A stretch of DNA of 64,000 bases from an uncultured Acidobacteriota bacterium (GCA_963823995.1 CAWGNQ010000005.1:706510-770509), one strand, 5' to 3'. Shown: positions 3,824 through 52,597, counted from the stretch's first letter. The notes: generated by a model not told the origin, from the sequence alone. Translations and numbers: made by a program.

Positions 3824-6307
3824 ATGTTCGAAAAGACGAGTACAACACCGACGACCCTTCCGAAAGACCCGGTCTGTGGAATGGACGTCGATCCGAACAA
3901 CAGCGAGCTCCATTCAGACTATGGCGGCTCGACCTACTACTTCTGCAGCCGCTCCTGCCTCGAAGCCTTCGAAAAAGAGCCGAGACGCTACCTGGAGGAG
4001 AACGCCCGCGAAAAAACGGTCGGCGATCACCGTCATCCCCATTCACACCCAAAGGACCGCTCGGGTCGGGACGGTTCCGATCAGGTCTACACCTGTCCCA
4101 TGCATCCGGAAGTCGAAGAGGATGCTCCTGGAGGCTGCCCGGAATGCGGGATGGCCCTGGAACCGAAGCACCCGAAGATCTCCGCTCAGAAGACTCAGTA
4201 CACCTGTCCCATGCATCCGGAGGTCGTCGAGGACGAACCGGGCAGCTGCCCGAAGTGCGGGATGGCCCTCGAGCCAACCACCGTCTCGGCAGAAGCCGAA
4301 GAGGAGGATCCGGAGCTTCGCAATATGACGCGTCGATTCTGGGTCGGCGTCGTCCTGACGGCGCCGCTGCTGCTTCTTGCCATGGGCGACCACATCGGGC
4401 TGCCGATTCGATCCCTCATTTCGCAGCAGGTCTCCAACTGGATCGAACTGATGCTGGCGACCCCGGTCGTGCTCTGGGCCGGGTTGCCGTTTTTCCAGAG
4501 GGGCTATCACTCGATCAGGCGTATGAGCCTGAACATGTTCACGCTGATCTCTCTCGGCACCGGCGTCGCCTGGCTCTATAGCGTGGTCGCCACGCTGGCA
4601 CCCAACATCTTCCCTCAAGCCTTTCGAGGAGAAGCAGGTGCGGTCCCAGTCTACTTCGAGGCGGCGGCCGTCATCGTGACCCTGGTCTTGCTCGGCCAGG
4701 TCATGGAACTCCGGGCCCGCCGCTCGACCAGTGGAGCGATCAGGGGCCTGCTTGGCCTCGCGGCCAAAACGGCCCGGCTGGTGCGCGAGGACGACTCGGA
4801 AGTCGACATACCGCTGGACCAGGTTGAAATCGGACACCGGCTCCGAGTGCGGCCGGGCGAGAAGGTGCCGGTGGACGGGAAAGTGGTCGAGGGCAGGACG
4901 ACCGTCGACGAATCGATGATCACTGGAGAGCCGATTCCAGTCGAAAAGGCGCCCGGCGACGAGGTCGTCGGGGCAACGATCAACCAGACCGGAAGCGTCC
5001 TGATGGTGGCCGAGAAGGTCGGTAGCGAGACCGTACTGGCCCGCATCGTCCAGATGGTGAGCGAAGCCCAGCGCAGCCGTGCTCCGATTCAAAGGCTGGC
5101 CGATCAGGTGGCGGCCTGGTTCGTTCCCATCGTCGTCACTATTTCAGTCATTACGTTCGTGGTCTGGTCGATCTGGGGACCGCGCCCTGCCTTCGCCTAT
5201 GCACTGGTCAACGCCGTGGCCGTCCTGATCGTCGCCTGTCCCTGTGCCCTTGGGCTGGCCACGCCGATGTCGGTGATGGTCGGAGTCGGAAAGGGGGCGC
5301 AGAGCGGGGTTCTGATCAAGCACGCCGAAGCCATTGAAGTCCTGGAGAAGATCGACACGATCGTCGTCGACAAGACCGGCACGCTCACTGAAGGCCGGCC
5401 CCGACTCGTTACCGTGTCGGCCGAAGAGGGCTGGGACGAAACCGACTTCCTGCGGCTGGCCTCCGGGATCGAAGCGGGCAGCGAGCATCCCCTGGCAGCC
5501 GCCATTGTCGAGGGCGCAAAGGACCGCGGTGTGACGCCGGCCAAAGCACGGGACTTCGAGTCGGCCACGGGTAAAGGTGTGCTGGGCACTGTGGAGAGCC
5601 GTCAGGTGGCGCTCGGAAACCGGCGTCTGCTGGAGGATCTTTCGGTGGACGTCTCGGCGCTCTCTGAAAAGGCGACCTCACTGCGCGAGGATGGACAGAC
5701 CGTGATGTTCGTCGCCATCGACGGCAAGCCTGCCGGCCTGCTCGGCGTTGCCGACCCCATCAAGGAGTCGACACCGGAGGCCGTCCGGCTGCTCCATGAC
5801 GACGGGATCGAGATCATCATGCTCACCGGAGACAATCGGATGACGGCTGAGGCCGTCGCCCGAAAGCTCGGCATCGACAGGATCGAAGCCGAAGTCCTTC
5901 CGGATCAGAAGAACGAAGTGATCCAAAGGCTTCAGGCTGAAGGAAGAAAGGTGGCAATGGCAGGTGACGGCATCAATGACGCTCCGGCTCTCGCCCAGGC
6001 CCATGTCGGCATCGCCATGGGCAGTGGTACGGACGTGGCCATGGAAAGCGCCGGGATCACTCTCATGCAGGGGGACCTGCGCGGCATTGCAAAGGCCCGC
6101 ATGCTCAGCCACGCGACGATGCGCAACATCCGTCAGAACCTCTTCTTCGCCTTCGTCTACAATTCGATCGGTGTCCCCATCGCGGCCGGTGTGCTCTATC
6201 CCTTCTTCGGAATTCTCCTGAGCCCGATTATCGCCGCGGCCGCCATGAGTTTCAGTTCTGTCTCCGTCGTGGGAAACGCACTGAGGCTCCGCAACATCCG
6301 CCTCTAG
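3824..6307 (+). CDS. copA: copper-translocating P1B-type ATPase
   Basis: N-terminal YHS/TRASH domain ([10 protein letters not shown]...[16 protein letters not shown]); two HMBD repeats ([20 protein letters not shown] x2); CPC motif [11 protein letters not shown]; DKTGTLT; [13 protein letters not shown] aaggag before ATG 3824 (track ORF starts 3779). Confidence 0.95.
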
Positions 6308-10326: not shown

Positions 10327-11832
10327 ATGGTCGGCATCGGCATGGCAGGAGTCGTTCTGGTCAACCCCTACCGCTGGGGGTGGGCGGACAGCCTCCACCA
10401 TTCCGTCGCCGGACTCGTCCACGGACCCGAAGAGGCAGCCTCGGAGTCTGCCGAGGGACAGCTTTGGACCTGCGGGATGCATCCTCAGGTCGTCGAGGAT
10501 CATCCGGGAACTTGCCCCATCTGCGGAATGGACCTGATTCCGCTGAAAGGCTCGACCGGAGGACAAGCCATAGAGACTGCAGCCGGCCAGAAAGGAAAAG
10601 GCCGGAGCGAAGGTGAGCGAAAGATCCTCTACTGGCGCGCGCCGATGGATCCGACCTATACCTCGGACAAGCCGGGGAAATCGCCGATGGGCATGGATCT
10701 GGTCCCGGTCTATGCCGACGAAGCCGCCGGAGAGGGGTCGTCCGCCAACACGATCAAGATTGATCCGACCTTCGTCCAGAACATCGGCGTGCAGACGACC
10801 CCGGTCAAGCGTCAGGACATCCCTTTCACGATCCGAACGGTCGGAAACGTCACCTACAACGACGAACAAGTCCACTGGGTGAACACGAAATACGACGGCT
10901 GGATCGAGAAGGTCTATATCAACTACGTCGGGCAGCCTGTGAAGAAGGGACAGAAGCTCTTCGAGATTTATAGCCCGCAACTGGTCACCACCCAGCAGGA
11001 ATATCTCGATGCCCTCGACTACGCCGAGAAACTGAGCACGAGCCCCTATCCCGACATCAAAGAACGGGCCCGGTCCCTGCTGGAATCCTCCCGTCAGCGG
11101 CTCGCCTACTGGGACATTCCGAACGATCAGATTGCAGAACTGGAGAAGACCCGGAAACTTCTTCGCACCCTGAGCGTCGTCTCGCCGGTGACCGGGATGG
11201 TGGTCGAGAAGATGGATCAGGCGCTGGAAGGGATGCACGCGAAAGCCGGCATGAATCTCTACAAGATCGTCGATCTTTCGACGATCTGGGTCGAGGCGGA
11301 CATCTTCGAGAACCAGATCCCGTGGCTCAAGACAGGTCAGCCTGCAACGCTCGAATTCCCGTATCAGCCAGGCCGTAAATTCCGGGGAAGGATCCGGTAC
11401 ATCTACCCCTATTTCGATGACAAGACGCGCACGATGAGGGTCTCCCTCTCCCTTCCGAACCCGGGGCTCGAGTTCAAGAAGGACATGTATGTCAACGTGA
11501 CCTTCGACGTGCCCTCCGCTCACAACGTCATCACGGTTCCGGAAGAGGCCGTGATCCACAGCGGCGAGCGCAACGTCATCGTTCTGAGTCGCGGCAACGG
11601 GGAGTTCGAGGTCCGGGACGTCACGCTGGGCCTGAACGGCAGCGGCCTCTATGAGGTCAAACAGGGGTTGAAGGAAGGCGAAGAGATCGTCGTATCCTCC
11701 CAGTTCCTGATCGACTCGGAAAGCAATCTCAAGGAAGCCATTCGGAAGATGGTGGCGAAGAAGAGCGCCGCGGCGGAGAAACTGGAGAAATCCGAAGACA
11801 TGCAGGATATGCAACCGGCGACTGAGGATTGA
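10327..11832 (+). CDS. cusB: HME-RND membrane fusion protein (CusB-like) with N-terminal HMBD
   Basis: CGMHPQVVEDHPGTCPICGMDL and YWRAPMDPTYTSDKPGKSPMGMDLVPVY (CusB metal-binding N-terminus); beta-barrel/lipoyl MFP core. An RBS-preceded ATG at 10290 (MKKGILLSLVSF) lies in a different frame, suggesting a 1-bp indel at the T-run ~10322. Confidence 0.9.
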   Translation: MVGIGMAGVVLVNPYRWGWADSLHHSVAGLVHGPEEAASESAEGQLWTCGMHPQVVEDHPGTCPICGMDLIPLKGSTGGQAIETAAGQKGKGRSEGERKILYWRAPMDPTYTSDKPGKSPMGMDLVPVYADEAAGEGSSANTIKIDPTFVQNIGVQTTPVKRQDIPFTIRTVGNVTYNDEQVHWVNTKYDGWIEKVYINYVGQPVKKGQKLFEIYSPQLVTTQQEYLDALDYAEKLSTSPYPDIKERARSLLESSRQRLAYWDIPNDQIAELEKTRKLLRTLSVVSPVTGMVVEKMDQALEGMHAKAGMNLYKIVDLSTIWVEADIFENQIPWLKTGQPATLEFPYQPGRKFRGRIRYIYPYFDDKTRTMRVSLSLPNPGLEFKKDMYVNVTFDVPSAHNVITVPEEAVIHSGERNVIVLSRGNGEFEVRDVTLGLNGSGLYEVKQGLKEGEEIVVSSQFLIDSESNLKEAIRKMVAKKSAAAEKLEKSEDMQDMQPATED

Positions 11833-14800
11833 TCTTCATGCTCGAGAAAATCATCGACTGGTCCATCAAGAACAAGTTCTTCGTCCTGCTGGCGACGGTC
11901 TTCGTGATCCTTTGGGGCGTTTACTCCCTCCAGAATATGCCGTTGGACGCTATTCCGGATCTGTCCGACGTGCAGGTCATCATCTACACGGAGTATCCGG
12001 GTCAGGCGCCCCAGGTCGTCGAAGACCAGGTGACTTACCCGATCTCGACCCAGATGCTGGCCGTTCCCTATGCCAAGGCCGTGCGCGGCTACTCCTTCTT
12101 CGGTTTCTCGTTCGTCTACATCATTTTCGAGGACGGCACGGACATGTACTGGGCCCGCAGCCGCGTCCTCGAGTACCTGAACTACGTCTCCGGCCGGCTT
12201 CCCAAGGGCATCACGCCCACCCTGGGGCCGGATGCGACCGGGGTCGGGTGGGCGTACATGTATGCCCTGAAGTCGAAAACCAGAAACCTGTCGCAGTTGC
12301 GCAGCCTCCAGGACTGGTTTCTGAAGTATGAACTGACGTCGGTCGAGGGTGTCTCGGAGGTGGCCAGCGTCGGCGGCTTCGTCAAGCAGTATCAGATCGC
12401 GGTCGATCCCAACAAGCTTCGAGCCTACAACATTCCCCTTTCCAAGATCCGGATGGCCGTCCAGCGCAGCAACAACGACGTGGGCGGAAGAGTGCTCGAG
12501 ATGGCCGAGACCGAGTTCATGATCCGGGGTCTTGGCTACATCAAGAACCCCGAGGACATCAAGGAGATCGTCCTGGGCGTCGACGGATCGGGCGTTCCGA
12601 TCCTGATGAAGGACGTGGCCACGGTCCAGGTGGGCCCCGACATCCGCCGGGGCATCGCAGAACTGGACGGAGAAGGCGAAACCGTCGGTGGGATCATCGT
12701 CGTCCGCTACGGCGCCAATGCCTACGGCGTCATCCAGAGAGTCAAACAGAAGCTCGAAGAGCTGAAGCAGGGCTTGCCGTCGGATGTCGAGATCGTGCCC
12801 GTCTACGATCGAACCGCCCTGATCGAGCGTTCGGTCGAGACGCTGCGGGGGAAACTGCTCGAAGAAGGGATCGCCGTCGCGCTCGTGTGCATTCTCTTCC
12901 TGCTCCACCTCCGCTCGGCACTGGTCGCCATCATCACCCTCCCCATTGCCGTCTTGATGGCCTTCATCGTCATGCACACTCAGGGGATCAACGCGAACAT
13001 CATGTCGCTCGGAGGGATTGCCATCGCGATCGGTGCCATGGTGGATGCTGCGATCATCATGATCGAGAATGCCCACAAGCATCTCGAACACGACAAGGGG
13101 AAGAAGGATCACTGGCAGATCATCGCGGATTCTGCCAAGGAAGTCGGCCCGACTCTCTTCTTCGCGCTGCTCGTGATCACCGTTTCCTTCGCTCCGGTCT
13201 TTACGCTCGAGGCACAGGAAGGACGGATGTTCAAACCGCTGGCCTTTACCAAGACCTACTCCATGGCGGCGGCTTCCGTTCTGGCCGTGACGCTGATCCC
13301 GGTCCTGATGGGTTACTGGATCCGGGGAAAGATCCGCTCCGAAGAAAGGAACCCGATCAGCCGCTTCATGATCTGGGTCTACGATCCCATCCTTCACTTC
13401 ATGCTCCGGTGGAAGTGGACGGTCCTGCTGGTCACGGTGCTGACCCTGGGCTCCATGTACATCCCTTACTCCCGGCTGGGATCGGAGTTCATGCCGCCCC
13501 TGTGGGAAGGGGATCTCCTGTACATGCCGACGACGCTTCCCGGCATCTCGATTACCAAAGCCCGGGAACTGCTGCAGCAGACCGACAAGATCATCCGGAC
13601 CTTCCCGGAGGTCGAACGGGTCTTCGGGAAGATCGGTCGTGCGGACACCGCCACGGACCCGGCGCCCTTGAGCATGATCGAGACAACGATCACGTTGAAA
13701 CCCGAAGATCAGTGGCGCCCCGGGATGACCTCGAAGAAGCTGATCGCTGAAATGAACGAGGCCATCCAGTTCCCCGGGGTCACCAACGCCTGGACGATGC
13801 CGATCAAGACGCGCATCGACATGCTTTCGACGGGGATCAAAACGCCGGTCGGCGTCAAGTTGTCGGGCCCGGAGCTCTCCGTGCTCCAGGATCTCGGCGA
13901 GGAGATCGAAGCGGTCGTCCGCAACGTGCCCGGTACGCTCTCGGTCTACTCCGAGCGCGTCATGGGCGGGAACTTCCTCGATTTCGATATCGACCGCAAA
14001 GCCCTGGCCCGCTACGGGCTGACGGTCGGCGACGTGCAGGACGTGATCCAGTCCGCCATCGGGGGTATGAACGTGACGACCACGGTCGAAGGCCTGGAAC
14101 GGTATCCGGTCAATGTCCGCTACAGCCGGGAACTACGGGACAACATCCAGGACCTCGAGAACATCCTCGTCGCGACGCCGATGGGCGCCCAGGTGCCTCT
14201 CGGCTACCTCGCGCACATCCGGATCAAGAAGGGGGCGCCGGCCATCAAGACGGAAAACTCGCGGCCCAATGCCTGGATCTACGTCGACATCTCGGATGTG
14301 GACGTGGGGACGTATGTCGCCATGGCTCGTCGGGCCGTCGCCGAGCAGGTCGAGATGCCGGCCGGCTACAACATCGTCTGGAGCGGTCAGTACGAATACA
14401 TGCAGCGCGCCAAGCAGCGGCTCATGTATGTGGTCCCCATGACCCTGATGATCATCTTCGTGATCATCTACCTGAACACCCGGTCGGTGATGGAGACCGT
14501 GATCGTGCTCTTCGCCCTTCCCTTCTCCATGGTCGGCACCTTCTGGCTGCTCTACCTGCTGAACTACAATCTGAGCATCGCCGTCTGGGTCGGGATCATC
14601 GCTTTGGCCGGTCTGGCGGCGGAGACGGGAGTCGTGATGCTCCTGTACCTGGATGTCGCGTACGAAGAGGCTGTCCGAGACGGACGGATGCGAAGGCGAA
14701 AGGAGCTCATCGACGCTATCTTCCAGGGCGCCGTCACCCGTGTGCGGCCCAAGATCATGACGGCGAGCGTAATCCTGGCCGGCTTGATTCCGATCATGTG

Positions 14801-14966
14801 GAGCCACGGCACGGGTGCCGACGTCATGAAGCGCATCGCCGCCCCCATGGTCGGCGGCATCATCACGTCGGTGATCCTCACCCTCGGCGTCTATCCGGTC
14901 ATTTACTACCTGTGGAAGGGATGGGAAGTCAAAGATGTGGAAGCAGAAGTGGATGCAACTGAATAG
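11829..14966 (+). CDS. cusA: heavy-metal efflux RND pump (CusA/CzcA family)
   Basis: 1045 aa, 12-TM RND with IPDLSDVQVIIYTEYPGQAP N-terminus; ATGA overlap with cusB stop. Confidence 0.95.
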   Translation: MIFMLEKIIDWSIKNKFFVLLATVFVILWGVYSLQNMPLDAIPDLSDVQVIIYTEYPGQAPQVVEDQVTYPISTQMLAVPYAKAVRGYSFFGFSFVYIIFEDGTDMYWARSRVLEYLNYVSGRLPKGITPTLGPDATGVGWAYMYALKSKTRNLSQLRSLQDWFLKYELTSVEGVSEVASVGGFVKQYQIAVDPNKLRAYNIPLSKIRMAVQRSNNDVGGRVLEMAETEFMIRGLGYIKNPEDIKEIVLGVDGSGVPILMKDVATVQVGPDIRRGIAELDGEGETVGGIIVVRYGANAYGVIQRVKQKLEELKQGLPSDVEIVPVYDRTALIERSVETLRGKLLEEGIAVALVCILFLLHLRSALVAIITLPIAVLMAFIVMHTQGINANIMSLGGIAIAIGAMVDAAIIMIENAHKHLEHDKGKKDHWQIIADSAKEVGPTLFFALLVITVSFAPVFTLEAQEGRMFKPLAFTKTYSMAAASVLAVTLIPVLMGYWIRGKIRSEERNPISRFMIWVYDPILHFMLRWKWTVLLVTVLTLGSMYIPYSRLGSEFMPPLWEGDLLYMPTTLPGISITKARELLQQTDKIIRTFPEVERVFGKIGRADTATDPAPLSMIETTITLKPEDQWRPGMTSKKLIAEMNEAIQFPGVTNAWTMPIKTRIDMLSTGIKTPVGVKLSGPELSVLQDLGEEIEAVVRNVPGTLSVYSERVMGGNFLDFDIDRKALARYGLTVGDVQDVIQSAIGGMNVTTTVEGLERYPVNVRYSRELRDNIQDLENILVATPMGAQVPLGYLAHIRIKKGAPAIKTENSRPNAWIYVDISDVDVGTYVAMARRAVAEQVEMPAGYNIVWSGQYEYMQRAKQRLMYVVPMTLMIIFVIIYLNTRSVMETVIVLFALPFSMVGTFWLLYLLNYNLSIAVWVGIIALAGLAAETGVVMLLYLDVAYEEAVRDGRMRRRKELIDAIFQGAVTRVRPKIMTASVILAGLIPIMWSHGTGADVMKRIAAPMVGGIITSVILTLGVYPVIYYLWKGWEVKDVEAEVDATE

Positions 14967-16147: not shown

Positions 16148-16185
16148 TTCACAGGCGTGCAGGATGGGAGGACGGGAGGACGCAC

Positions 16186-16347
16186 ATCAGAGCCGGAACG
16201 AAGTGAGGGACCCCCCTGCACGGCCGTCAAACACCCGGCTTTCCACGCCGGACGAACACCCGCGGCAGCCCGGCGGTTTTCGCGGGAACGGTCGGGACAC
16301 AATTACCGGGCTTTGGTGACACCCTCACTGCGTTCCGGCTCTGACGC
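16186..16347. mobile_element. MITE-like element copy 1 (~162 bp) with ~27-bp terminal inverted repeats
   Basis: Left arm catcagagccggaacgaagtgagggac, right arm ggtgacaccctcactgcgttccggctctgacg; near-identical element at 52598-52760. Confidence 0.5.
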
Positions 16348-16419
16348 TGCTGACGCTGCGGTTTCCGCAGCCCGCGCCGCGGGCTGCGCGCCAAATCGTA
16401 AACTAGTCGACGCCTCGCT

Positions 16420-21236: not shown

Positions 21237-21456
21237 CTGAATAGAGTCGGAATTTTAGCACACTCATCGGCATCGGCAGACGCGCCCGGCGTCGAACGCG
21301 ACTCCCCCGGTGTCACGCACATTCCCCGGGAAAATGTAGTTGCCCGCCGGCCGGGGATCCCTGCGCGTCGCTCAGGCGATCCGGTTTGACTCCGCAGGCC
21401 GCAAGCCCTAACATGGGATTCTGCCATAAGGATATCCATTCCAGGTGGGGAACCCA

Positions 21457-22302
21457 ATGAACATACATTTGTATCGATTCGCAGTCGCTCTCGTGTGCCC
21501 CCTTCTCTTGACTCCCTCTTTTCTGGCGGCAGCCGATAAGCCGACCGTCGACGAGATCATTCAGAACCATCTCAAGAATCTCACCTCCGGAGATCCGGCC
21601 GAGATGACCAAGCCGAAAGCGGCCGTCGGGCAGGCCAGGATGAAGATTCTGACTGGCAGCGGCGAGGTGCAGGGTAAGGTCCAGCTCGTAAGCGCCTTGA
21701 ATTACCTTCAGCTGAAGCTGGCGTACCCGGACCCCAACTACCCGCGCGACGGCTTTACTCTCCGTCCGGACGGCGAAATCGTCCCGGAAAAGGTCGAGGC
21801 CGACAACTACGGATGGCTGGGAGGCTTCTTCTATTCCAACAAGGACATCGTGCGAAGCGGCTTCGTGGGCGGCGTCGATTCGTCGGCCTGGCCGTTCCTA
21901 CGGAAGGACCCCGACGTCAAGTGCGACTACGATGGCGAGGAGAAGGTCGAGGGAGACAAGACGTACAAACTGAAGTGCCGGGTCAACAGCCTCATCACGG
22001 CGACGCTCTACTTCGACCAGAAGAACTACCGGCTCCTGCAGACAGTCTATCGGATCCCGCCGACTCCCCAAATGTCGACGGACCTCGGCAACATCAACAA
22101 CTCCTCGCAGCGTGCCGACAACGGCAACGCCTTGCTGACCACGCGATTCAAGGATTACAACAGGGTCGGGGACCACGAGTTTGCGGCCCGTCTGATCATC
22201 GACCTCGAATATCGGGGAGAAGGCTCCATCAAGGTCAGGTGGGAGATCGTTTTCCAAAACGTCGTCCCCGTAACGCTCAATCTGGACAACGGCAACAAAT
22301 AG
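21457..22302 (+). CDS. secreted hypothetical protein
   Basis: RBS aggtgggg before ATG 21457; signal peptide MNIHLYRFAVALVCPLLLTPSFLAAA; no recognisable domain. Confidence 0.55.
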   Translation: MNIHLYRFAVALVCPLLLTPSFLAAADKPTVDEIIQNHLKNLTSGDPAEMTKPKAAVGQARMKILTGSGEVQGKVQLVSALNYLQLKLAYPDPNYPRDGFTLRPDGEIVPEKVEADNYGWLGGFFYSNKDIVRSGFVGGVDSSAWPFLRKDPDVKCDYDGEEKVEGDKTYKLKCRVNSLITATLYFDQKNYRLLQTVYRIPPTPQMSTDLGNINNSSQRADNGNALLTTRFKDYNRVGDHEFAARLIIDLEYRGEGSIKVRWEIVFQNVVPVTLNLDNGNK

Positions 22303-22384
22303 CCTTCCGCTGGCCTCCCGGGCCGGGGCCCTTGCCGGAAAGGCCGAGGGCCGCAAACGAGCAGCAAACGCGGCTGCATTTCGG

Positions 22385-23393
22385 CACCGTCAGTGCCGGA
22401 ACGAAGTGAGGGTTTCACCAAAGCCCATCCGCCGCTCCCCACCATTCCCGCACACACCACCGGAGTTACCGCTGCTGTTCATCCGGGATGGACCGGCCGA
22501 AACCGCACCGTCAGTGCCGGAACGAAGTGAGGGTTTCACCAAAGCCCATCCGCCGCTCCCCACCATTCCCGCAACCACCGGAGTCGCCGCCTGTGTTCAT
22601 CCGGGATGGACCGGCCGAAACCGCACCGTCAGAGCCGGAACGAAGTGAGGGTTTCACCAAAGCCCATCCGCCGCTCCCCACCATTCCCGCACACACCACC
22701 GGAGTTACCGCTGCTGTTCATCCGGGATGGACCGGCCGAAACCGCACCGTCAGAGCCGGAACGAAGTGAGGGTTTCACCAAAGCCCAACCGCCGCTCCCC
22801 ACCATTCCCGCAACCACCGCCGGAGTCGCCGCCTGTGTTCATCCGGGATGGACCGGCCGAAACCGCACCGTCAGAGCCGGAACGAAGTGAGGGTTTCACC
22901 AAAGCCCATCCGCCGCTCCCCACTATTCCCGCACACACCACCGGAGTTACCGCTGCTGTTCATCCGGGATGGACCGGCCGAAACCGCACCGTCAGAGCCG
23001 GAACGAAGTGAGGGTTTCACCAAAGCCCATCCGCCGCTCCCCACCATTCCCGCACACACCGCCGGAGTTGCCGCCGCTGTTCATCCGGGATGGAACGGCC
23101 GAAACCGCACCGTCAGTGCCGGAACGAAGTGAGGGTTTCACCAAAGCCCAACCGCCGCTCCCCACCATTCCCGCACACACCACCGGAGTTACCGCCGCTG
23201 TTCATCCGGGATGGAACGGCCGAAACCGCACCGTCAGAGCCGGAACGAAGTGAGGGTTTCACCAAAGCCCATCCGCCGCTCCCCACCATTCCCGCGAACA
23301 CCGCCGGGGTCGCCGCCGGTGATCATCCGGGATGGAAAGCCGGGCATTCGGCGACCGCACAGGGGGTCCCTCACTTCGTTCCGGCTCTGACGG
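22385..23393. repeat. tandem array of eight ~121-bp units plus a degenerate terminal unit, bounded by MITE-type terminal inverted repeats
   Basis: Unit: caccgtcag[t/a]gccggaacgaagtgagggtttcaccaaagccc...ccgaaaccg. Periods 121/118/121... Two unit variants (acacaccaccggagttaccgctgctg vs aaccaccggagtcgccgcctgtg) alternate. Array ends with the inverse arm ggtccctcacttcgttccggctctgacggtg (23361-23391). Confidence 0.85.
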
Positions 23394-23411
23394 TGTCGGT
23401 TGTGCGCCCCC

Positions 23412-23456
23412 CCCCGAAAAAGAGAAAAGGCGGCCTCCCGAAGGAGGCCGCCTTTG
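23412..23456 (-). terminator. rho-independent terminator of the OM receptor gene
   Basis: ggcggcctcc-cgaa-ggaggccgcc perfect 10-bp stem followed (on minus strand) by uuuucucuuuuuc. Confidence 0.6.
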
Positions 23457-23483: not shown

Positions 23484-26400
23484 CTAGAAGTAGAACTTCA
23501 ATGCGACCTCGATGACGCGGTGGCCGTGCTTGTTGGTGACTTGTCCAAACTCGTTGGAGCCACCTGGGAGATACGCAGAGTCAAAGGAGAATCCTTGCGT
23601 CGGATCGCACGTGTCAACGGTTCCACCCACCCCATTCGGAACACCAGTGACTGAGACGTTACACGTGGTGTTGAGACCGAGACGGATGTCCGTGTTCCCA
23701 TTGGTCAGCACCGGGTACGCCTGATTGAACAGGTTAAAGAAGCCGGCCCGGAACTGGAGCCGACGATCCTCGCCAAAGTCGAAGTCCTTGAAGAGGGAAA
23801 CGTCGAAATTCCAGCGAGAAGGCGTCCTCATGTAGTAGGGCGGTGCGAACGGCCCGCTGGTCCCGAAGGCCGGGATCTGCACGCAACTCATGTCGAGATA
23901 CGAGTCGCCCACTTCCGAGCTCGAATTGGCCTGCGGATTACAGGTGTAGACGGGAGCGTTCGCCGTTCTGTAGGCATTCGTCCCAAAGGCCGCCTGCTCA
24001 TAGTCATCACCGCCGGCCGACCCACCGAGCGTTAGCCGAATCGGAGTACCCGACTGGAAGGTGTTGATGCCCGACATCTGCCATCCGTCGAAGACCGCCT
24101 GGGTGAAGCCGTTGCGGAATCCACCCATGGCCAGACTCGGCACCTGATACGTGTACGACAGGTTGAAGATGTGCGTACGGTCGTAGTTCAGAATACCGTA
24201 ATCCCGGTTTCGGACATCCACCGGATCCACCGGCTGGTTGTCGCCGGCCAGCCCGGAACCCAACACCTTTGAGAAGGTGTAAGTCGCATAGTACTGGAAC
24301 CGCTCGCCCGCCTGACGCCGCAGTGTGACCTGCAACGAGTGGTAGTTCGACGACTGGGAGTACTCGGAGTTGTTGATGGTCCCAAAACCCTCGAACGGAC
24401 GGAAAAGAGCCAGCGCCTGGTCATCGAGAGCATAGCGGTTGACCGGGACCGTAAGATCCGAGTTACCCACCGTGCCGCTCAACAACGCCCCTTCCGGGAT
24501 GATGTTGAGGTCACGATAGCCGAACAGATGGCGTCCCCGTGTTCCGACATATGCGGTTTCGAGGATGTTGTCATAGGGCAACCGCGTGGCAACCGAAAAG
24601 CTCATGCTGATCGTCTGCGGGATTTCGACACGTCCGAACGTCTGGGTACCGGTACTGACCGAACCAAGGCGGGCGAACGGGTCGATTTGGCTCATATTAT
24701 TGTAGTTGATCAGCGATCCGTCGGCAAAACCGCCGGAATCATAGTTGATGCCGCCGCTGTTGAAGCGATTCGGCGGTGTATTCAGGATCCAGTACTGGCT
24801 GTTCCCCTGCGGGCGGTTGTAGAAGATGCCGCCACCGGAACGAATCACCAGACTCGCATCGCCGCGCACATCCCAGGCAAAACCAACTCGAGGCATCCAC
24901 AGCGGGTGTGGGTCCTGACTGATCCCCTTGGGAATCTCACCATCGGAGGCAAAAAGCATCCCGTTCGGACGGAACACATCGCCACCCGGGTAAGTCCCGC
25001 CTCCAGGAATGTAGGCATCCGGAGAGAAAGCAACCGCCAGACCGTCTCGCTCGATGTTGTTCGGCCAATAACCGACACGCAGGCCGAGTTCGAGCGTCAA
25101 GCCCGGCCTCACCTTCCAGTTGTCCTGGACGAATCCTTCAACATTCCAGTAGCGGAAATGGCCCACAGGGCCGCTCGTGGTCTGGAAGATCTGTTCAGGA
25201 TGGCCGACCAGCAGGTCGCCAAAGCTGTTGCCGGTCGTACCCCGAACCCAGCTACTGTCTCCCTGGATTGCAAAACCGCCTTCGTCGTCGCCGTTGAAGT
25301 TCTGGATTTTGTTCGCCTGCTCGACGTAACCGCCGAACTTCAGGGCGTGGGCGTTCATCACCTTGTTGACATTGTCGTTCAACGAAATGCTGTCGTTGTG
25401 GGCAAACATCGGCAAACCGCCGGGCTCCCACATGTTGCCGCCCGGGCTGCCCCACATCTGGTAGTTGATGGGGACATAATCGTTCCGGATCAATGCAGGA
25501 TCGAACAACATCTCGTAGTCGCCGAGTCCCAGGGTGGACAGTCGCAGCGATTCGGGATCCTTGTAATCGTTGTCGAGCTTCAACCGGCTGAGGCTAACCA
25601 GCAACTCGTTCGTGGTCGTCGGATTGAGAACCGAAACGAGGTTACCCGATGCGGACCGGCCTAGATTCGTACCCAGAACATGAGACGGCAACTCGAAGTT
25701 GCTCGCCGCCCACCACAGGCCGCGCGCGAAGTCCTGATCCTCGGTCTCGCGGCCAAGGCGAACATACAATTTCGTGTTGTCGGTGAAGTTGTAGTCGAAG
25801 CGCATGATCAGCTGCATGCGGTTAGTCGGGGTCAGCGCGGAATAAAAGTAATTGTAGCGATCATTCCCCGACAGGTTCGGCGTGGGGTAGATGTTCATGA
25901 ACACGAGGCCTTCGGGGGTGGTGTAGTCCGTCAGATCGTTGTTCGGCGCAGGTATTCCCGTTTCCGCTCCCGAAGCCCAGACCGGAAGGTTGACTTGGGA
26001 CGGCTGAGCCAGATAGCTGTCGCGGCCAAGAAATTCGCTGAAGTCTCCGGTCCGCTGCGCCAGCGTCGGAACGACGCCCTGGCTTCCGCCCGTGTCGACC
26101 TGCTGCCGCTGCCATTCCATGCCGACGAAGAAGAACAGCTTGTCACGGTCTTTGTTGAAGTTCGTCCCCGGGATGAGCACCGGACCTCCGACGTTAAAGC
26201 CGGGGTACTGGTACTTGCTCAACGGGCGTTCGATCCCGAAGTAGTTGCGCGAGCGGTCATTTGCGGCCAGCTTGTAGTGCCGGAGGTAGTCATAGACGGT
26301 TCCGTGGAAGTCACTGGTGCCACCCTTGGTGACCGCCGAGATCTGCACACCGCTCGTGCCGTATTCGGCAGAGTAGTTCGAGGTCTGAACCGTAACTTCC

Positions 26401-27083
26401 TGGACCATTTCGGGGTTGGCCGTCAACATGGTCCCGTTGTTCGATCCGATGTCCAGCATCTGGGATCCGTCGATCTGGACCTGGTTATTGATGCCCCGAA
26501 CGCCGTTGACGTTGTAGCTGTTGTTTGCGTTGGCACCTCCACCGAAGGACACGCTCTCCAGCTGAGACTGATCCGGAGCAACGACACCGGGAAGGACCCG
26601 GAGAAGTTCGAGGGAACTCCGGCTGATGATCGACAGGTTGTCGATCTGCTGGCTGGTGATGGTGTCCGACTGGGTCGGGGTTTCCGTCTTGATGAACTCA
26701 GACTGGGAAACCACCTGCACCGTTTCCGACATTTCGCCCAGCTGGAGCGTGGCCGTCACGCCTCGGGTTTCACTCGGGCTCAAACTGATGTTGGTATTCT
26801 CGTACTTCTTGAACCCGGGTAATTCGATCGTCAGCGTGTACGATCCGGGACGCACGGCAGCGAAGAGGAAGCCCCCCTGGGCATCCGTGACCGTCGTACG
26901 CCTGTCACCGGTCGCCGTGTAAATCAACGTCACATCGGCGCCCGGCACGACTGCTCCAGTCGGATCCTTTACAGTTCCCCGTATTGATCCGTTACCCGCC
27001 GTCTGCGCCACCACCTGGAAGCTCAGACAGAGGATAAGAGCCAGAAATAGAACTAGGTTACGTAAGTTGTGTCCCTTCAACAA
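23484..27083 (-). CDS. CarboxypepD_reg/Plug-containing TonB-dependent-type outer membrane receptor
   Basis: Signal peptide; GSIRGTVKDPTGAVVPGADVTL...DAQGGFLF (CarboxypepD_reg); plug-like region; 1199 aa; C-terminal ...ALKFYF. Confidence 0.8.
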   Translation of the reverse strand: MLKGHNLRNLVLFLALILCLSFQVVAQTAGNGSIRGTVKDPTGAVVPGADVTLIYTATGDRRTTVTDAQGGFLFAAVRPGSYTLTIELPGFKKYENTNISLSPSETRGVTATLQLGEMSETVQVVSQSEFIKTETPTQSDTITSQQIDNLSIISRSSLELLRVLPGVVAPDQSQLESVSFGGGANANNSYNVNGVRGINNQVQIDGSQMLDIGSNNGTMLTANPEMVQEVTVQTSNYSAEYGTSGVQISAVTKGGTSDFHGTVYDYLRHYKLAANDRSRNYFGIERPLSKYQYPGFNVGGPVLIPGTNFNKDRDKLFFFVGMEWQRQQVDTGGSQGVVPTLAQRTGDFSEFLGRDSYLAQPSQVNLPVWASGAETGIPAPNNDLTDYTTPEGLVFMNIYPTPNLSGNDRYNYFYSALTPTNRMQLIMRFDYNFTDNTKLYVRLGRETEDQDFARGLWWAASNFELPSHVLGTNLGRSASGNLVSVLNPTTTNELLVSLSRLKLDNDYKDPESLRLSTLGLGDYEMLFDPALIRNDYVPINYQMWGSPGGNMWEPGGLPMFAHNDSISLNDNVNKVMNAHALKFGGYVEQANKIQNFNGDDEGGFAIQGDSSWVRGTTGNSFGDLLVGHPEQIFQTTSGPVGHFRYWNVEGFVQDNWKVRPGLTLELGLRVGYWPNNIERDGLAVAFSPDAYIPGGGTYPGGDVFRPNGMLFASDGEIPKGISQDPHPLWMPRVGFAWDVRGDASLVIRSGGGIFYNRPQGNSQYWILNTPPNRFNSGGINYDSGGFADGSLINYNNMSQIDPFARLGSVSTGTQTFGRVEIPQTISMSFSVATRLPYDNILETAYVGTRGRHLFGYRDLNIIPEGALLSGTVGNSDLTVPVNRYALDDQALALFRPFEGFGTINNSEYSQSSNYHSLQVTLRRQAGERFQYYATYTFSKVLGSGLAGDNQPVDPVDVRNRDYGILNYDRTHIFNLSYTYQVPSLAMGGFRNGFTQAVFDGWQMSGINTFQSGTPIRLTLGGSAGGDDYEQAAFGTNAYRTANAPVYTCNPQANSSSEVGDSYLDMSCVQIPAFGTSGPFAPPYYMRTPSRWNFDVSLFKDFDFGEDRRLQFRAGFFNLFNQAYPVLTNGNTDIRLGLNTTCNVSVTGVPNGVGGTVDTCDPTQGFSFDSAYLPGGSNEFGQVTNKHGHRVIEVALKFYF

Positions 27084-27475: not shown

Positions 27476-29149
27476 ATGCGAGAGAACCCTATGGAAAGGC
27501 TCAAACTCAAGTTGCTCGCGTTCGCGATTTCCTCGACTTTCATTGTTTCGTTCTTCCCGGTGACGACGTTCGCACAGTCCGATTCGAGCAGACGGGACAG
27601 CGGAAAGTTGGCTCAAGAGGAAGCCGTCGACTACTACGGAAAGTGGCTCAACGAAGACGTGGTCTACATCATCACGCCGGAAGAGCGGAAAGTCTTCGAA
27701 GGTCTGACGACCCCCGAGGAAAAGGAGCGGTTCATCGAGCAGTTCTGGCTGCGACGCGATCCGGATCGTACGACCAAGGTGAATGAGTTCAAGGAAGAGC
27801 ACTATCGCAGGATCGCCTACGCGAACGAAAACTTCACATCGGGGATCGAAGGCTGGCGGTCGGACCGCGGGAGGATCTACATCATCCAGGGTCCCGCCGA
27901 TGAGGTGAAGTCGTTCACGGCCGGGCACCACCTCAATCGAGACTACAGCGAGGGGGGTGGAAGTACGCGGACCTACCCTTACGAGGTCTGGCGGTACCGC
28001 CACATCGACGGACTCGGCGACGACGTCGAACTGGAGTTCGTCGACAAGACCTTTTCCGGTTCTTTTCAGCTGGCCGTGACTCCATGGGACAAGGATCTTC
28101 TGTTGAACACTCCGGGCAGTGGCCTCACGATTGCAGAGATGTACGGCTCCGCGACCCGCGCCGATCATCCCTTCCACAATTGGTCGGTCCAGCACCAGGA
28201 CGAGTATCCGGGCCTGGCGCCTCGCAGCGGCAATCGCCCTTTCGAACGCATGGAGAGATACTTCAAGTCCCAGCGACCCCAGCAGATCAAATACGACGAT
28301 CTGAAGGAAGTCGTGCAGGTCAGCCTCAACTACGATGAGCTTCCCTTCCAGGTCCGCGAGGACTACATTCGGTTGAATGAGGCCCAGACCGTCGTACCGA
28401 TTACGCTCGAGTGGCGCAACAAGGACCTGACGTTCTCACCGGTTCCTGAAACCAACTCCTCCCAGGCCAAGATTGCCGTCTACGGCATCGTCACAGGCCT
28501 GTCGAATGAAGTGATCACGGAATTCGACGACGACGTCGTCAGCAGTTACGGTCCGGAGCAGAAAAACCTAATCACCCAGGGCAGCTCCATGTATCAGAAG
28601 GTCCTTTCGCTCGAGGCCGGAAACCGCTACAAGCTGACCCTGGTCACCAAGGACCTGAATGCCAATCGGACCGGTGTCAAGGACCTGGGACTGATCCTCC
28701 CCAAATTCGACAGACAGGGCCTGACGCTGAGCCCGGTCATTCTCTCTAACTTCGTGCGGCGTCTCGAGGGACCCGATCTCGAGAAGGACAACCTGATGTT
28801 CGTGCTCGGAGACCTCTGGATCCGGCCAAGCGTCGATCGGGAGTTCCAGCAGGGACAGGATATGGGGATCTACGTCCAGGCATACAACGCGGCGTTGGAC
28901 AGCCAGACGATGCAGCCTAACCTGGAGATCACCTATCACCTTGAAGGCGCGGACGACGTCGAACTCAATTTGGACGACCGCTCGGGCAAGGCGGTCGATT
29001 ACTTCTCAGCGCAGCGGGTCGTGCTCCTGAAGATCCTGCGTCTTTCGGAACTGCCTCCGGGCAAGTACTCGCTTGTCGTGGATGTCCTCGACCGGATCAC
29101 GGGCGCGAAGGCGTCGGTCCGCGAGCGCTTCTCGATCACCAAGAGCTGA
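27476..29149 (+). CDS. GWxTD-domain protein (copy 1)
   Basis: MRENPMERLKLKLLAFAISS signal; EEKERFIEQFWLRRDP; GWRSDRGRIYIIQG (GWxTD motif). Track ORF 27224 includes upstream junk. Confidence 0.8.
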   Translation: MRENPMERLKLKLLAFAISSTFIVSFFPVTTFAQSDSSRRDSGKLAQEEAVDYYGKWLNEDVVYIITPEERKVFEGLTTPEEKERFIEQFWLRRDPDRTTKVNEFKEEHYRRIAYANENFTSGIEGWRSDRGRIYIIQGPADEVKSFTAGHHLNRDYSEGGGSTRTYPYEVWRYRHIDGLGDDVELEFVDKTFSGSFQLAVTPWDKDLLLNTPGSGLTIAEMYGSATRADHPFHNWSVQHQDEYPGLAPRSGNRPFERMERYFKSQRPQQIKYDDLKEVVQVSLNYDELPFQVREDYIRLNEAQTVVPITLEWRNKDLTFSPVPETNSSQAKIAVYGIVTGLSNEVITEFDDDVVSSYGPEQKNLITQGSSMYQKVLSLEAGNRYKLTLVTKDLNANRTGVKDLGLILPKFDRQGLTLSPVILSNFVRRLEGPDLEKDNLMFVLGDLWIRPSVDREFQQGQDMGIYVQAYNAALDSQTMQPNLEITYHLEGADDVELNLDDRSGKAVDYFSAQRVVLLKILRLSELPPGKYSLVVDVLDRITGAKASVRERFSITKS

Positions 29150-29154
29150 ATACA

Positions 29155-29348
29155 GGAGAGAGGAGGCAGGAGGCAGGAGACGGGACACAGATGGGAGAAC
29201 GGGAGAACCGGAGGACGGGAGAACCGGACTTGACATCTGCAACGTTCCGGGTTCGACGATTCGGGTCTTCGGGCCGAGTTCTCGAAACCCGAAACCCGTA
29301 ACTCGAGACCATCAGGGTGACAACTTCTGGCCAGGACTTGACACCAAA
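29155..29348. repeat. composite intergenic repeat element E1 (GGGAGAAC tandem core, TTGACA boxes, GAAACCC repeats, cagggtgacaac..ggacttgacacc tail)
   Basis: Shares >100 bp of collinear similarity with 38681-38900; GGGAGAAC-type runs also at 47110-47165, 52440-52520, 52800-52830, 37326-37350. Confidence 0.6.
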
Positions 29349-29377
29349 TCCCCTCCTGTCTCCTGACCCCTGAGCTG

Positions 29378-30526
29378 CTACGGTCCGTCGTTGCTGCCCG
29401 GACTTGACTGAGTTTTGGCCCGAAGCTCCCTCAGCGTCGCATCCTGGTTCTGCTGCTCCGTCCTCAGGCGCTCGACGATCGCCTTGTGACGCTCCGCTTC
29501 TTCCCTTCGGCCCAGCCGAAAACAGAGCGTCGTCAGCATGGCGTGCAGCTCGGCGCTGTCAGGGGCAAGCTCCACGGCCTCTTCCAGGGCCGTGAGCGCC
29601 TTTTCATACTCTCCCATCTGCAGATAGGCCTTTCCGAGCGCAGCGGTTGCGGACGGCGAATGGGGCAGCAAATCGAGCACGTGCTGGATTTGAGGAAGCG
29701 CCTGTTCCGGCCTGCGTCGTCTCAGCTGTTCGTAGGCGATCTGGAGAATCGAGGCGACATGATCCGGCGAAACATCGAGCTCCTTACGAAACTCCTTCAG
29801 TGCCGCGTCGCTGTCCGATTTCAGCAGAAAGACGCCGTAGGCGTAGTGGACATTCGGGAAGGAAGGATAAAGTTGGACCAGCTCCTGATATTCCCGCGCG
29901 GCATCGTCCTGTCTGCCCAGCCAGTTGTAGACTGCCGCCTGCCCCGCAAGCTGCACCGCCTTCGCCTGACCTGGATCGAGTTCGGCCGGGAGCTTCGGCA
30001 GCCGGAGCAGGCAGATACCCAGGGCCTCCATGACCTTGGGATTGTCCGGATCCTCGCCTGCCAGAAGCAGCAGCAGCCGATACGCCTCGTCGAAGCGCTC
30101 GAACCGGGTCAGCAGCGTTGCCTCACGAAACGATGTGAGGAAGACGAGTTCCTTGTTGGCCCCGAGTCCGAGTCGATCGGCCTGCTGCAGATTCTCGAGA
30201 GCCCGCTCATAGGAATGGAGCTCGTACTCGACGAGTCCCAGAAACCCCCACCCTACACCGATCTCCGGGTGAAGCCCGACGAGCTTCACGAATGCCTGTT
30301 TGGCTTTGGGGTACTCTTCCAGATCGTATCGAAGCGCACCCAGGGACCACCAGCCGTCGGCCCAGTCGGGCTTCGATGCAAGTGCCTGCTCGTACAAATC
30401 GGCCGCCCGGGCCAGCTGCCCCGATTCCCGAGCCGTGCGTGCCCGGTTCGCGAGATCCTCGAAGGAGGGCTGGCCGAGGAGCTCTCCGCTCAACACAACG
30501 AGCAGGACCGCAATGGAGAGAATCAT
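29378..30526 (-). CDS. secreted TPR-repeat protein, paralog family A (copy 4)
   Basis: GWWSLG, HYAYG; C-terminal HKAIVERLRTEQQ. ATG 30526 (MILSIAVLLVV) favoured over GTG 30577. Confidence 0.8.
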   Translation of the reverse strand: MILSIAVLLVVLSGELLGQPSFEDLANRARTARESGQLARAADLYEQALASKPDWADGWWSLGALRYDLEEYPKAKQAFVKLVGLHPEIGVGWGFLGLVEYELHSYERALENLQQADRLGLGANKELVFLTSFREATLLTRFERFDEAYRLLLLLAGEDPDNPKVMEALGICLLRLPKLPAELDPGQAKAVQLAGQAAVYNWLGRQDDAAREYQELVQLYPSFPNVHYAYGVFLLKSDSDAALKEFRKELDVSPDHVASILQIAYEQLRRRRPEQALPQIQHVLDLLPHSPSATAALGKAYLQMGEYEKALTALEEAVELAPDSAELHAMLTTLCFRLGRREEAERHKAIVERLRTEQQNQDATLRELRAKTQSSPGSNDGP

Positions 30527-37409: not shown

Positions 37410-37573
37410 GCGGGAACAACGCCCGTGAGATCACGGCCCTTGCCGGAGACAAGCACGGATGCTTATCCCACTCCCGCGGCCTCACTGTCCGATCTTTCGG
37501 AACTCAGCGGGAACAACGCCCGTGAGATCACGGCCCCTGCCGGAGACAAGCAGGGATGCTTATCCCACTCCCT
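37410..37573. repeat. two copies of a 66-bp direct repeat, each with a perfect 14-bp palindrome ccgtgagatcacgg
   Basis: 37410-37475 and 37508-37573, 2 mismatches; in convergent intergenic region. Confidence 0.8.
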
Positions 37574-38680: not shown

Positions 38681-38900
38681 CGGGAAACGGGAGTCGGGAA
38701 ACGGAATCCGGGAGCGTCTGGAAGCGCGAGGCGGAGAACGGGAGAACCGGAGGACGGGAGAACGGGAGGACTACGGAGCGAGCATCAGAGCCGGAACGAA
38801 GTGAGGGACCTACGGGTTTCGGGTCGCCGGGTTTCGAGGAACCAGAAACCAGGAACCGAAACCCTCAGGGTGACAACCTCTGACCGGGACTTGACACCCG
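38681..38900. repeat. composite intergenic repeat element E2 (GGGAAAC/GGGAGAAC core + solo MITE arm + GAAACC repeats + cagggtgacaac..ggacttgacacc tail)
   Basis: Collinear with E1; contains catcagagccggaacgaagtgagggacc (38784-38811), identical to the MITE left arm. Confidence 0.6.
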
Positions 38901-47055: not shown

Positions 47056-47350
47056 GCAACGTTCCACGTTTCACGTTCCAAGTTTCACGTCTCACGTTCA
47101 CGGTTCGGCGTGGGGAGACCGGGAGTCGGGAAACGGGAAACGGGAGTCGGGAGAACGGGAAAACGGGGACACGAGGGGTCGAAGGATTGTTGGACCGCCG
47201 CGGGCTGTGCACCCCGAATTCGCTCTGACTCCCTGACTCGAATTACCTCGCTCGAATACCGGACACGCGTTCCAGTTACATCCCGATCAAGCTGCCGAGC
47301 CCAAGGACCCGCAACTTGGAACCTGAAACCTGGAAACTGGAACGTCAAAA
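47056..47350. repeat. composite intergenic repeat element E3 (GTTTCACGT x4, GGGAGTCGGGAAACGGGA run, GGAACCTGAAACC x5)
   Basis: Simple-repeat blocks related to E1/E2 fill the convergent pheA / GT5 intergenic region. Confidence 0.6.
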
Positions 47351-52424: not shown

Positions 52425-52530
52425 CCGTGGCCGGACGGGAGGCCGGAGGCCGGGTCGCCGGAGAACGGGTCGCCGGGAGAACGGGTCGCCGGGGGTAGCG
52501 GGTGGCCGGAGAACGGGTGGCCCGGGGGTA
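52425..52530. repeat. GGGAGAACGGGTSGCC-type tandem repeat block (element E4)
   Basis: gccggagaacgggtcgccgggagaacgggtcgccgggggtagcgggtggccggagaacgggtggcc... Confidence 0.7.
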
Positions 52531-52597
52531 GCGGGTGGAAGGAAGGGCATCTCCCGCCCGTAGCCTGACGCGATTTCCCAATCGTGCACGAATGGGA

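Follow-up and report, generated by a model that had tools for sequence, protein, structure and literature searches.

A strain-variable minisatellite in a MITE/REPIN-like repeat of an uncultured Acidobacteriota bacterium

Among described systems, the pneumococcal BOX element is the closest in organisation to the locus analysed here. BOX is built as boxA-(boxB)n-boxC, and the number of tandem boxB modules differs between strains (PMC3049150). The two have in common a dispersed, intergenic, non-coding element whose complementary ends close a stem-loop, a variable internal tandem module and the lack of a proven transposase (PMC3049150). The module of the present locus, however, is 121 bp long (boxB measures about 45 bp) and takes in one terminal arm and nearly the whole body, and the array has eight forward arms and one inverted arm, whereas the other copies of its family seen here are single-module. 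End modules, a variable tandem module and dispersal are thus all found here in another phylum, as an analogy of organisation with no sequence relation or homology. Mycobacterial MIRU-VNTRs also form a dispersed family of intergenic units with tandem arrays of strain-variable copy number, and a dispersed family with a variable array is seen in both cases. MIRUs differ in being 46-101 bp long, in having no terminal inverted repeats and in lying often inside operons with overlapping stop and start codons, while the array described here has convergent genes on its two sides and a frame of inverted arms.

REPINs and BIMEs likewise join two inverted short hairpin motifs into a long hairpin, are clustered and reach a high density in intergenic DNA, above all where genes converge (PMC3733652, PMC6006769). 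In the present element, by contrast, the 5' GT[AG]G foot is absent, the arms are not perfect palindromes of 8-20 bp, the spacer is ~105 nt and the array runs head-to-tail, not in alternating orientation; a weak screen that covered the window and 571 kb of fetched loci detected no RAYT. The arm contains neither GTAG nor GTGG, and its core has just a 2+2-bp stem with purine mismatches around a GAA loop. CGTC-tagged REPs are defined by a terminal CGTC, an 8-9-bp stem starting with A-T pairs, a 4-5-nt loop and a CCA tail (Di Nocera 2013, PMC3733652); the dRS3/NIME arrays of Neisseria consist of 50-150-bp units split by a short conserved repeat, and the CGTC class has no known dedicated transposase (PMC3733652). 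CGTC does stand immediately outside all R-type arms of the present family (CAC-CGTC-AGAGCC), but the stem, the loop and the CCA tail are all absent, and CATC takes its place at 3/4 L-type arms.

Classical MITEs (Correia, ERIC, RUP, Nezha) resemble the element in its length of ~160 bp, its terminal inverted repeats (TIRs), its non-coding interior, its long hairpin and its intergenic multi-copy occurrence (PMC3184786). It departs from them in being GC-rich rather than AT-rich, and no consistent target-site duplication (TSD), no IS with matching ends within the 64 kb analysed and no insertion polymorphism at two sites were found for it. Within the Acidobacteria themselves, RAYT-like 'TIRYT' genes are flanked by long inverted repeats (PMC3733652), and class 3 HUH-Y1 genes are flanked by hairpins with a 5' CnGA foot, of which Solibacter usitatus has about 600 copies (PMC6006769). 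The class 3 TnpA-Y1 structures of Acidobacteria and Planctomycetes (Quentin et al. 2018) are similar to the present family in phylum, high copy number and CnGA-foot hairpins, and the published Solibacter consensus and the arm have ACCGTCAG in common, although this identity extends over just 8 nt and the hairpin shape is another.

We analysed a stretch of 64,000 nucleotides from an uncultured Acidobacteriota bacterium, referred to below as the window. Tandem Repeats Finder (TRF) reported a single array at 22384-23336, with a period of 121, 7.9 copies, 93% matches, 0% indels and a score of 1661, that is, head-to-tail copies beyond chance. Unit starts were set by anchoring on CACCGTCAG[A/T]GCCGGAACG, which gives units of 121 bp in seven of the eight cases and of 118 bp in u2 (Table 1). 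An arm of ~36 nt opens each of the eight units, and one inverted arm closes the array. With up to three mismatches allowed, 15 occurrences of the arm core GCCGGAACGAAGTGAGGG were counted in the window, against 0.16 expected from shuffles; eight of these occurrences are forward and within the array, and one is inverted, at 23368-23385. Between the outermost forward arm (22382-22412) and the terminal arm (23368-23398) there is an inverted repeat of 31 nt, 94% complementary (29/31), and the internal arms pair with the terminal inverted arm at 28/28 positions. The original prediction of eight 121-bp units framed by inverted arms, made from the sequence, was therefore right in both coordinates and description, as judged from TRF, the arm-core search and the inverted-repeat pairs.

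Table 1. Positions of the array, of the related elements and of the neighbouring features, counted along the window
Feature	Position	Strand	Basis
Tandem array, eight units (forward arm and body each)	22385-23349	+	TRF; unit alignment, difference matrix
u1	22385-22505	+	Unit alignment
u2	22506-22623	+	Unit alignment
u3	22624-22744	+	Unit alignment
u4	22745-22865	+	Unit alignment
u5	22866-22986	+	Unit alignment
u6	22987-23107	+	Unit alignment
u7	23108-23228	+	Unit alignment
u8	23229-23349	+	Unit alignment
A-B-A-B-A higher-order pattern, ~242 bp, units 1-5	22385-22986	+	Pairwise difference matrix
Complete founder element	23229-23395	-	Colinear with dispersed copies; junction alignment
Terminal inverted arm, L-type, CACCGTCAGAGCCGGAACGAAGTGAGGGACCCCC on minus strand	23362-23395	-	Core match 23368-23385; inverted-repeat pairs
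Dispersed single-copy member, between convergent genes	16187-16350	+	L032 homologue at 4731-4894; fold z = -4.7
Dispersed single-copy member, between convergent M28 peptidase and deaminase genes	52600-52764	+	Fold z = -6.6
Solo L-type arm, possibly degenerate element, divergent intergenic region	38785-38810	+	Arm-core search
Further partial arm core GGGGAACGAAGTGAGGGAC, shortly past the 52.6-kb element	52779-52796	+	Arm-core search
Upstream hypothetical gene, signal-peptide-like N-terminus, converges on array	21445-22302	+	ORF list
Intrinsic terminator of receptor gene (13-bp stem, then T-tract), between receptor gene and array	23426-23455	-	
TonB-dependent outer-membrane receptor gene (CarboxypepD_reg + Plug + beta-barrel), converges on array	23484-27083	-	

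Comparison of the units with each other revealed two variants. The type A units (u1, u3 and u5) have 1-2 differences among them, and the type B units (u2 and u4) have 6, including the 3-nt deletion in u2. Within units 1-5 the difference matrix gives 1, 6 and 1 differences at lag 2, compared with 8-10 at lag 1. Further along, u6 and u7 are A-like, while u8 is distinct and differs at 14-19 positions from every other unit. Two alternating variants with a 242-bp period had been proposed for the array; the alternation is present in units 1-5 and does not extend beyond them. Judged from the unit sequences, this partial period would point to the duplication of an A-B dimer. The divergence between A and B units reaches 7%, that between u8 and the rest 12-16%, and the variation between units is clustered in unit columns 67-93.

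The array is part of a family of elements that consist of two inverted arms of ~28-36 nt and a body of ~105 nt. In the colinear elements the body lies between an L-type arm (…GTGAGGGACCCCC) and an R-type arm (GGGCTTTGGTGAMACCCTCAC…CTCTGACGGTG). The last unit and the terminal arm together make up the complete founder element of ~160 bp, which is colinear over its full length with the copies at 16.2 kb and 52.6 kb and which, read on the minus strand, has the order L-type arm, body with an 8-nt longer 5' part, R-type arm. The array units match only the 'R-type arm + body' part of the element. The last unit had been taken to be degenerate; instead, u8 is the only unit that continues colinearly, with its 8-nt longer body end, into a complete element. 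The 85-bp body, thought to be unique to the array, aligns at 73-83% identity with the bodies of the two dispersed copies. All units fall into this range, and an ancestral position of u8 as the unit nearest to the dispersed copies thus finds no support in identity, colinearity being the sole argument for it. The central proposal, that the left part (arm and body) of one inverted-repeat element was amplified in tandem, is borne out by the array end, which is colinear with the single copies, and by the two-unit allele that a second strain has at the same site. Within the window the arm-core motif is dispersed, singly or paired, every ~15 kb. All complete copies (3/3) lie between convergent genes, and such intergenic spots are where insertions are least harmful.

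An independent assembly, ENA ERZ25039500 contig_17764 (L032), contains the same locus with 1.9 units by TRF, versus eight in the window. The intergenic distance of the two convergent genes is 458 bp in L032 and 1182 bp in the window, equivalent to ~six units less. Identity between the two is 99.3-100% across 6-7 kb on each side of the array, which is the sole indel of at least 4 bp between them. L032 represents a different haplotype: 30 mismatches to the window were counted in 9.9 kb downstream, and identity falls to 78-94% in a tract at 11.4-14.9 kb of the window; a strain recombination breakpoint at the array was considered and rejected, as this divergent tract does not lie beside it. The L032 units correspond to u5 and u6 of the window (1 mismatch in 231), fused in register to the end of u8, and they keep a T variant that is private to u5. 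Collapse by an assembler yields the majority base at each position. Because the private variant of u5 is retained, the L032 allele is a recombinant and not a majority-consensus collapse. The variation in copy number between strains that had been suggested as a check is thus observed at this one locus, as eight versus two units on near-identical flanks, and, as far as assemblies tell, the array does not collapse to one unit, the result that was named at the outset as speaking against it.

The Logan contig L033, assembled from short reads, agrees with the window at 99.9% identity and breaks off precisely at the first arm, which is the failure expected of short reads at a 1-kb repeat. In two related species (L030 and L031) the contigs end just past the orthologous gene. 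In L031, a species at ~78% amino-acid identity, a different repeat family is found there, and no copy of the element is present downstream of the orthologous gene.

The upstream hypothetical protein has 285 aa and orthologues at 76-100% identity (an identical copy is encoded on a 2.15-Mb NCBI/ENA contig, the presumed source, and near-identical ones on L032 and L033), and it gave no Pfam match; the receptor start in the L032 annotation gives 1154 aa. As predicted, the array has the hypothetical gene on one side and the receptor gene's terminator on the other (Table 1). No canonical terminator was found between the upstream gene and the array, nor any promoter-like or terminator-like site inside the array when both strands were examined. 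ORFs within the array (94, 62 and 141 aa) matched no Pfam family and must stop within three units (at most 2.4 are seen), because 121 is 1 modulo 3 and the arm contains an in-frame TGA. A protein-coding repeat is ruled out by the period, the TGA stops in the arms and the lack of Pfam matches, and the 94-aa and 62-aa ORFs are, as suspected from the start, artefacts of the repeat.

A scan of the whole window against Rfam gave no matches at gathering thresholds, and permissive thresholds added nothing but matches of a generic long-hairpin kind to precursors of plant miRNAs, well under the cut-off; a known RNA family is ruled out by the two scans. The folding of a single unit, proposed earlier as a check for conserved structure, was no better than that of shuffles (z about 0). 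The complete founder, on the other hand, folds as one long arm-closed hairpin of -103 to -112 kcal/mol (z about -7.5), and arm-closed long hairpins were obtained for the three complete copies on either strand (z -4.5 to -7.6), as is trivially expected of an inverted repeat. RNAalifold, applied to ten distinct units and copies, gave a covariation term of +1.1 and a compensatory change at 1/29 pairs, in an alignment of few independent sequences and low power; neither covariation nor a curated-family match marks a structured non-coding RNA here. Tandem sRNA genes were rejected on the lack of promoter and terminator motifs in the units and on folding not above shuffles. Other kinds of array were also considered and rejected on anatomy: the spacers of a CRISPR-like array are lacking, iterons are much shorter than the unit, and no R'/R'' core of an attC array is present.

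The element is fairly described as MITE-like rather than as an established MITE. The view of the array as a single MITE agrees with the TIRs (arms of 28-31 nt, 94-100% complementary) that frame a short, non-coding core able to form a hairpin, and with the size, but it is not matched by a consistent TSD, a parent IS or insertion polymorphism. Inspection of the flanks of the three complete copies revealed no consistent TSD: TCGG is found on both sides of the array copy, the flanks of the 16-kb copy have only GAC in common, and those of the 52-kb copy extend the inverted repeat (ATGG/CCAT). At the two sites that could be tested, insertion polymorphism was not seen, the 16-kb and 52-kb copies being at the same sites in a second strain (L034 is 99.5% identical to the window across the 52.6-kb copy). 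No transposase signature was detected within the 64-kb window and the fetched loci.

Beyond this locus, the exact arm 22-mer has no match in 185,579 representative genomes. A degenerate 19-mer of the arm core, AGCCGGARCGMAGTGAGGG, was found at 29 metagenome loci and 34 genome loci; one viral match is probably due to chance. Outside the species of the window only the arm core matches, with the exception of a partial relative in L060. Twenty of the genome matches are in uncultured Acidobacteriota MAGs, 19 of those from the long-read MFD series, where the core sits in a different, conserved composite element of ~190 nt that shows compensatory stem changes between copies and corresponds to no Rfam family. 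This second family also forms 'head + n units' arrays, with a period of 134-137 bp and 2-3.7 copies at three loci (L050 has two such arrays within 1.3 kb), and its array junctions fall at the element terminus plus about 4 nt. The literature search on the arm motif returned nothing relevant to the printed motif. The element family of the window appears to be undescribed, with no Rfam family, no match of its motif in the literature and no copy in a representative genome.

The positions flanking the C-GNA-G loop of the core are mostly pair-compatible (A-T 25, G.T 26, G-C 16 and C-G 3, versus 12 non-pairs, in a sample biased by the search pattern), the unselected core variants GCGAAGC and CCGAAGG included. 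On its sequence the arm core would fit a small hairpin of the GNA-triloop type, a class of very stable hairpins (PMC13037366, PMC3201870). In the arm core, as in its variants, a CnGA foot stands next to the mini-hairpin (CGGA followed by ACGAAGT, or CCGA by GCGAAGC). Conservation of the core across families would imply some trans-acting factor. Partial-unit head-to-tail arrays in a second, unrelated acidobacterial family that shares the 19-nt core of the arm are a counterpoint to passive slippage; arrays in two families hint at a multimerisation mechanism specific to the elements rather than at purely passive slippage.

The observations made here, namely the anatomy of the array, its colinearity with single copies and the alleles of eight and two units on near-identical backgrounds, allow us to address how the array came about. 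We consider it probable that the array is a neutral, non-coding VNTR (a bacterial minisatellite) inside one copy of a ~160-bp dispersed MITE/REPIN-like element. The array consists of eight head-to-tail repeats of the outer arm and body, and the last of them alone continues into the inverted second arm. Where one unit meets the next, the complete element's body end (GGATGGAAAGCCGGGCATTCGGCGACCGCA followed by C) is replaced by one that is 8 nt shorter (GGATGGAACGGCCGAAACCGCA followed by C), with the next arm directly after it. GCAC is found in two places, on the forward arm's outer edge (TTCGGCAC, followed by CGTCAG) and at the body end (GACCGCAC, followed by AGGGGG). A first duplication of ~129 bp may have arisen by illegitimate recombination or slippage at this microhomology, and a loss of 8 nt would then have turned the ~129-bp segment into one of 121 bp, which was amplified. 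Expansion and contraction could both have followed from in-register unequal recombination or replication slippage between units, with the duplication of an A-B dimer as one expansion step that would leave the partial 242-bp period. We infer this order of events, and the neutrality of the array as well.

The array probably has no need of a function of its own, and its place between two convergent genes, beyond the receptor terminator, would explain why it is tolerated. Read-through from the upstream gene, if any, would add repeated arms and one very stable terminal hairpin to the 3' end of the transcript. Since the divergence among units, up to 7% for A versus B and 12-16% for u8 versus the rest, compares with less than 0.7% between strains nearby, the array is old and persistent; this persistence could reflect selection.

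Several other explanations have to be weighed against a neutral minisatellite. The array may have been built not by passive slippage but by the element's own HUH-Y1 machinery (a RAYT, a TIRYT or a 'class 3' TnpA-Y1), a site-specific nuclease or transposase acting on single strands that would recognise the arm mini-hairpin with its CnGA foot and produce head-to-tail multimers by one-ended or adjacent insertion or replication. We regard this as unlikely, though it is the most credible of the alternatives. Several findings are consistent with it: the core is common to unrelated repeat families in several Acidobacteriota MAGs, the positions around its C-GNA-G loop are mostly pair-compatible, the 'head + n units' arrays of the second family have their junctions about 4 nt past the element terminus, and the unit boundary in the window coincides with the outer edge of the arm. 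What is more, the phylum has both class 3 genes with CnGA-foot hairpins, including the Solibacter consensus that shares ACCGTCAG with the outer part of the arm (PMC6006769), and TIRYTs with long TIRs (PMC3733652). However, the Solibacter resemblance is just 8 nt, the motif sample is biased by the search pattern, and no family member shows insertion polymorphism between strains. Screens of the window and of 571 kb from fetched loci with regular expressions for RAYT, class 1 and class 3 gave no signature, which says little about a gene that a genome has in 1-3 copies, and the L032 allele is simply explained by in-register homologous recombination between existing units. A broader form of the same idea, to which we give equally little credence, is that AGCCGGARCGMAGTGAGGG, with its CnGA foot and C-GNA-G mini-hairpin, might mark an undescribed superfamily of acidobacterial intergenic repeats multiplied by a single-strand-specific enzyme of HUH-Y1 type, with the arrays (121 bp x 8; 134-137 bp x 2-4) as direct products of one-ended or self-adjacent activity. 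If true, this would be a mechanistically new route for REP-like elements to grow into minisatellites.

That the array acts as a functional RNA, either as tandem sRNA genes or as a 3'-UTR, protein sponge or stabiliser presenting eight purine-rich arm hairpins, seems quite improbable. All eight arm cores are oriented in the sense direction of the upstream gene, which has no canonical terminator ahead of the array, the complete terminal element would form a very stable hairpin, and REP, BOX and ERIC elements affect mRNA stability (PMC3733652, PMC3049150). Yet the units have no promoter-like sites, a single unit folds with z about 0, covariation and Rfam gave no support, and the presence of two copies in a near-identical strain argues against a dosage-critical function. 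An assembly artefact, in the eight-copy array or else in the two-copy allele, is more improbable still, even though tandem repeats are error-prone in assembly and short-read assemblies fail at this site. The units bear distinct, ordered variants (A/B/A'/u8) and are not identical copies; the private variant of u5 in the L032 units is not what a consensus collapse would leave, the flanking SNPs identify two different haplotypes, and both the 2.15-Mb source contig and the 'contig_N' naming of L032 look typical of long-read assemblies, which would span 1 kb. Least probable, in our estimate, is an array of cis-acting DNA sites, centromere-like (the 43-bp repeats of sopC are an example of such an array) or a landing pad for a nucleoid protein, with protein on each arm. 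Eight regularly spaced copies of a conserved 19-nt motif are compatible with this, and REPs have been reported to bind IHF, gyrase and Pol I (PMC6006769), but the motif also occurs alone or in pairs at intervals of ~15 kb, the length of the array differs between near-identical strains, and its place between convergent genes is in a chromosomal housekeeping region with no hint of partition or replication genes.

The feature is thus real, was correctly seen and was largely correctly interpreted by the original prediction. A strain-variable minisatellite in a MITE/REPIN-like acidobacterial repeat is of a kind already known, and this member of it is new. The locus itself is of little weight, being a minisatellite between convergent genes with no sign of a regulatory or coding function. 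It does explain why short-read assemblies of this lineage break at this site, and it offers a marker for typing strains within an uncultured population of Acidobacteriota. Besides, it records BOX-like behaviour, with ends and a variable tandem module, in a phylum whose small repeats are barely described. The part worth following is the conserved 19-nt, hairpin-bearing core, found in several acidobacterial repeat families that are prone to multimerise.

Three of the four L-type arms in the window have GGGAGAAC-type repeats 5-75 nt away. These simple repeats, which carry a G3 tract each 8 nt, occupy several intergenic regions of the window. At 52.4-52.8 kb they bracket the element as an inverted pair, and their copy number varies between strains (three versus two in L034, the second-strain sequence spanning this element). 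A 42-nt segment, 88% identical, is common to two loci downstream of GGGAGAAC blocks; together with the recurring GGACTTGAC(A) motif it may represent a promoter-like module or a further small repeat family.

The window also contains other repeats. The 66-nt direct repeats have no relation to the arm family, and the diverged long inverted repeat exists because two GWxTD-domain paralogues sit on opposite strands. The 77-nt coding repeat, present as two tandem copies within one gene and as a single copy in another, encodes a metal-binding-like motif, C-x-MHP…CP-x-CGM.

Repeats identified in the window and loci carrying the composite repeat
Feature	Location	Remarks
GGGAGAAC-type simple 8-bp repeats	window 16165-16181, 29193-29228, 38688-38771, 47113-47167, 52436-52538; inverted 52805-52830	intergenic
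Heptamer tandem repeat ACGTTYC	window 47059-47106	about 7 copies; directly upstream of GGGAGAAC-type block
GGACTTGAC(A) motif, recurring, and shared 42-nt segment	window 29228-29410 and 38857-38898	
66-nt direct repeats (two)	window 37410-37475 and 37507-37572	97% identical; spacing 97 nt; intergenic
Diverged long inverted repeat	window 27614-28045 vs 54881-55312	299 nt at 71% + 100 nt at 80%
77-nt coding repeat	window 4088-4275 and 10465-10541	
Composite repeat, genome loci	L050 1153-2462; L037 1-268; L039, L042, L045, L053, L055, L057, L062, L063, L066-L070	
Composite repeat, metagenome loci	L002, L006, L011-L015, L020, L023, L024, L027	
Composite repeat, GGCGACG end beside stop codon	L002, L006, L007, L022, L024, L062, L066, L069, L070	

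A conserved composite repeat of ~190 nt was found in other Acidobacteriota MAGs. It contains the GARCGNAGYGARGG motif three times, its stems covary from copy to copy, and Rfam holds no family for it. The composite repeat also forms tandem arrays of the form 'head + n x 136 bp' and is frequently positioned at contig ends. By a crude test, at least 9 of the 25 copies have their GGCGACG end 1-4 nt from a stop codon belonging to a long reverse-strand ORF (in two copies the distances are 13 and 18 nt), and this proximity suggests an insertion-site or orientation preference directly 3' of genes.

Comparison with L032, the second-strain contig carrying a two-unit array, revealed a divergent tract over the RND efflux-pump (ACR_tran) genes. 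Window 11453-14900 and L032 1-3450 are only 78-94% identical, whereas other regions are 99.3-100% identical, so the tract looks like an imported recombination tract. The pump gene is broken into four ORFs in L032.

In a related species (L031 6590-6993, Acidobacteriota MAG GCA_049282195.1), the region 3' of the orthologous gene harbours a different repeat family, GCGGCGCAGCCGCTTTGGACTG…GGTAGCTTGCTACCGC, where the window has the arm family. The contig terminates within this repeat. The intergenic site 3' of the orthologous gene is thus a hotspot for repeats in at least two lineages.
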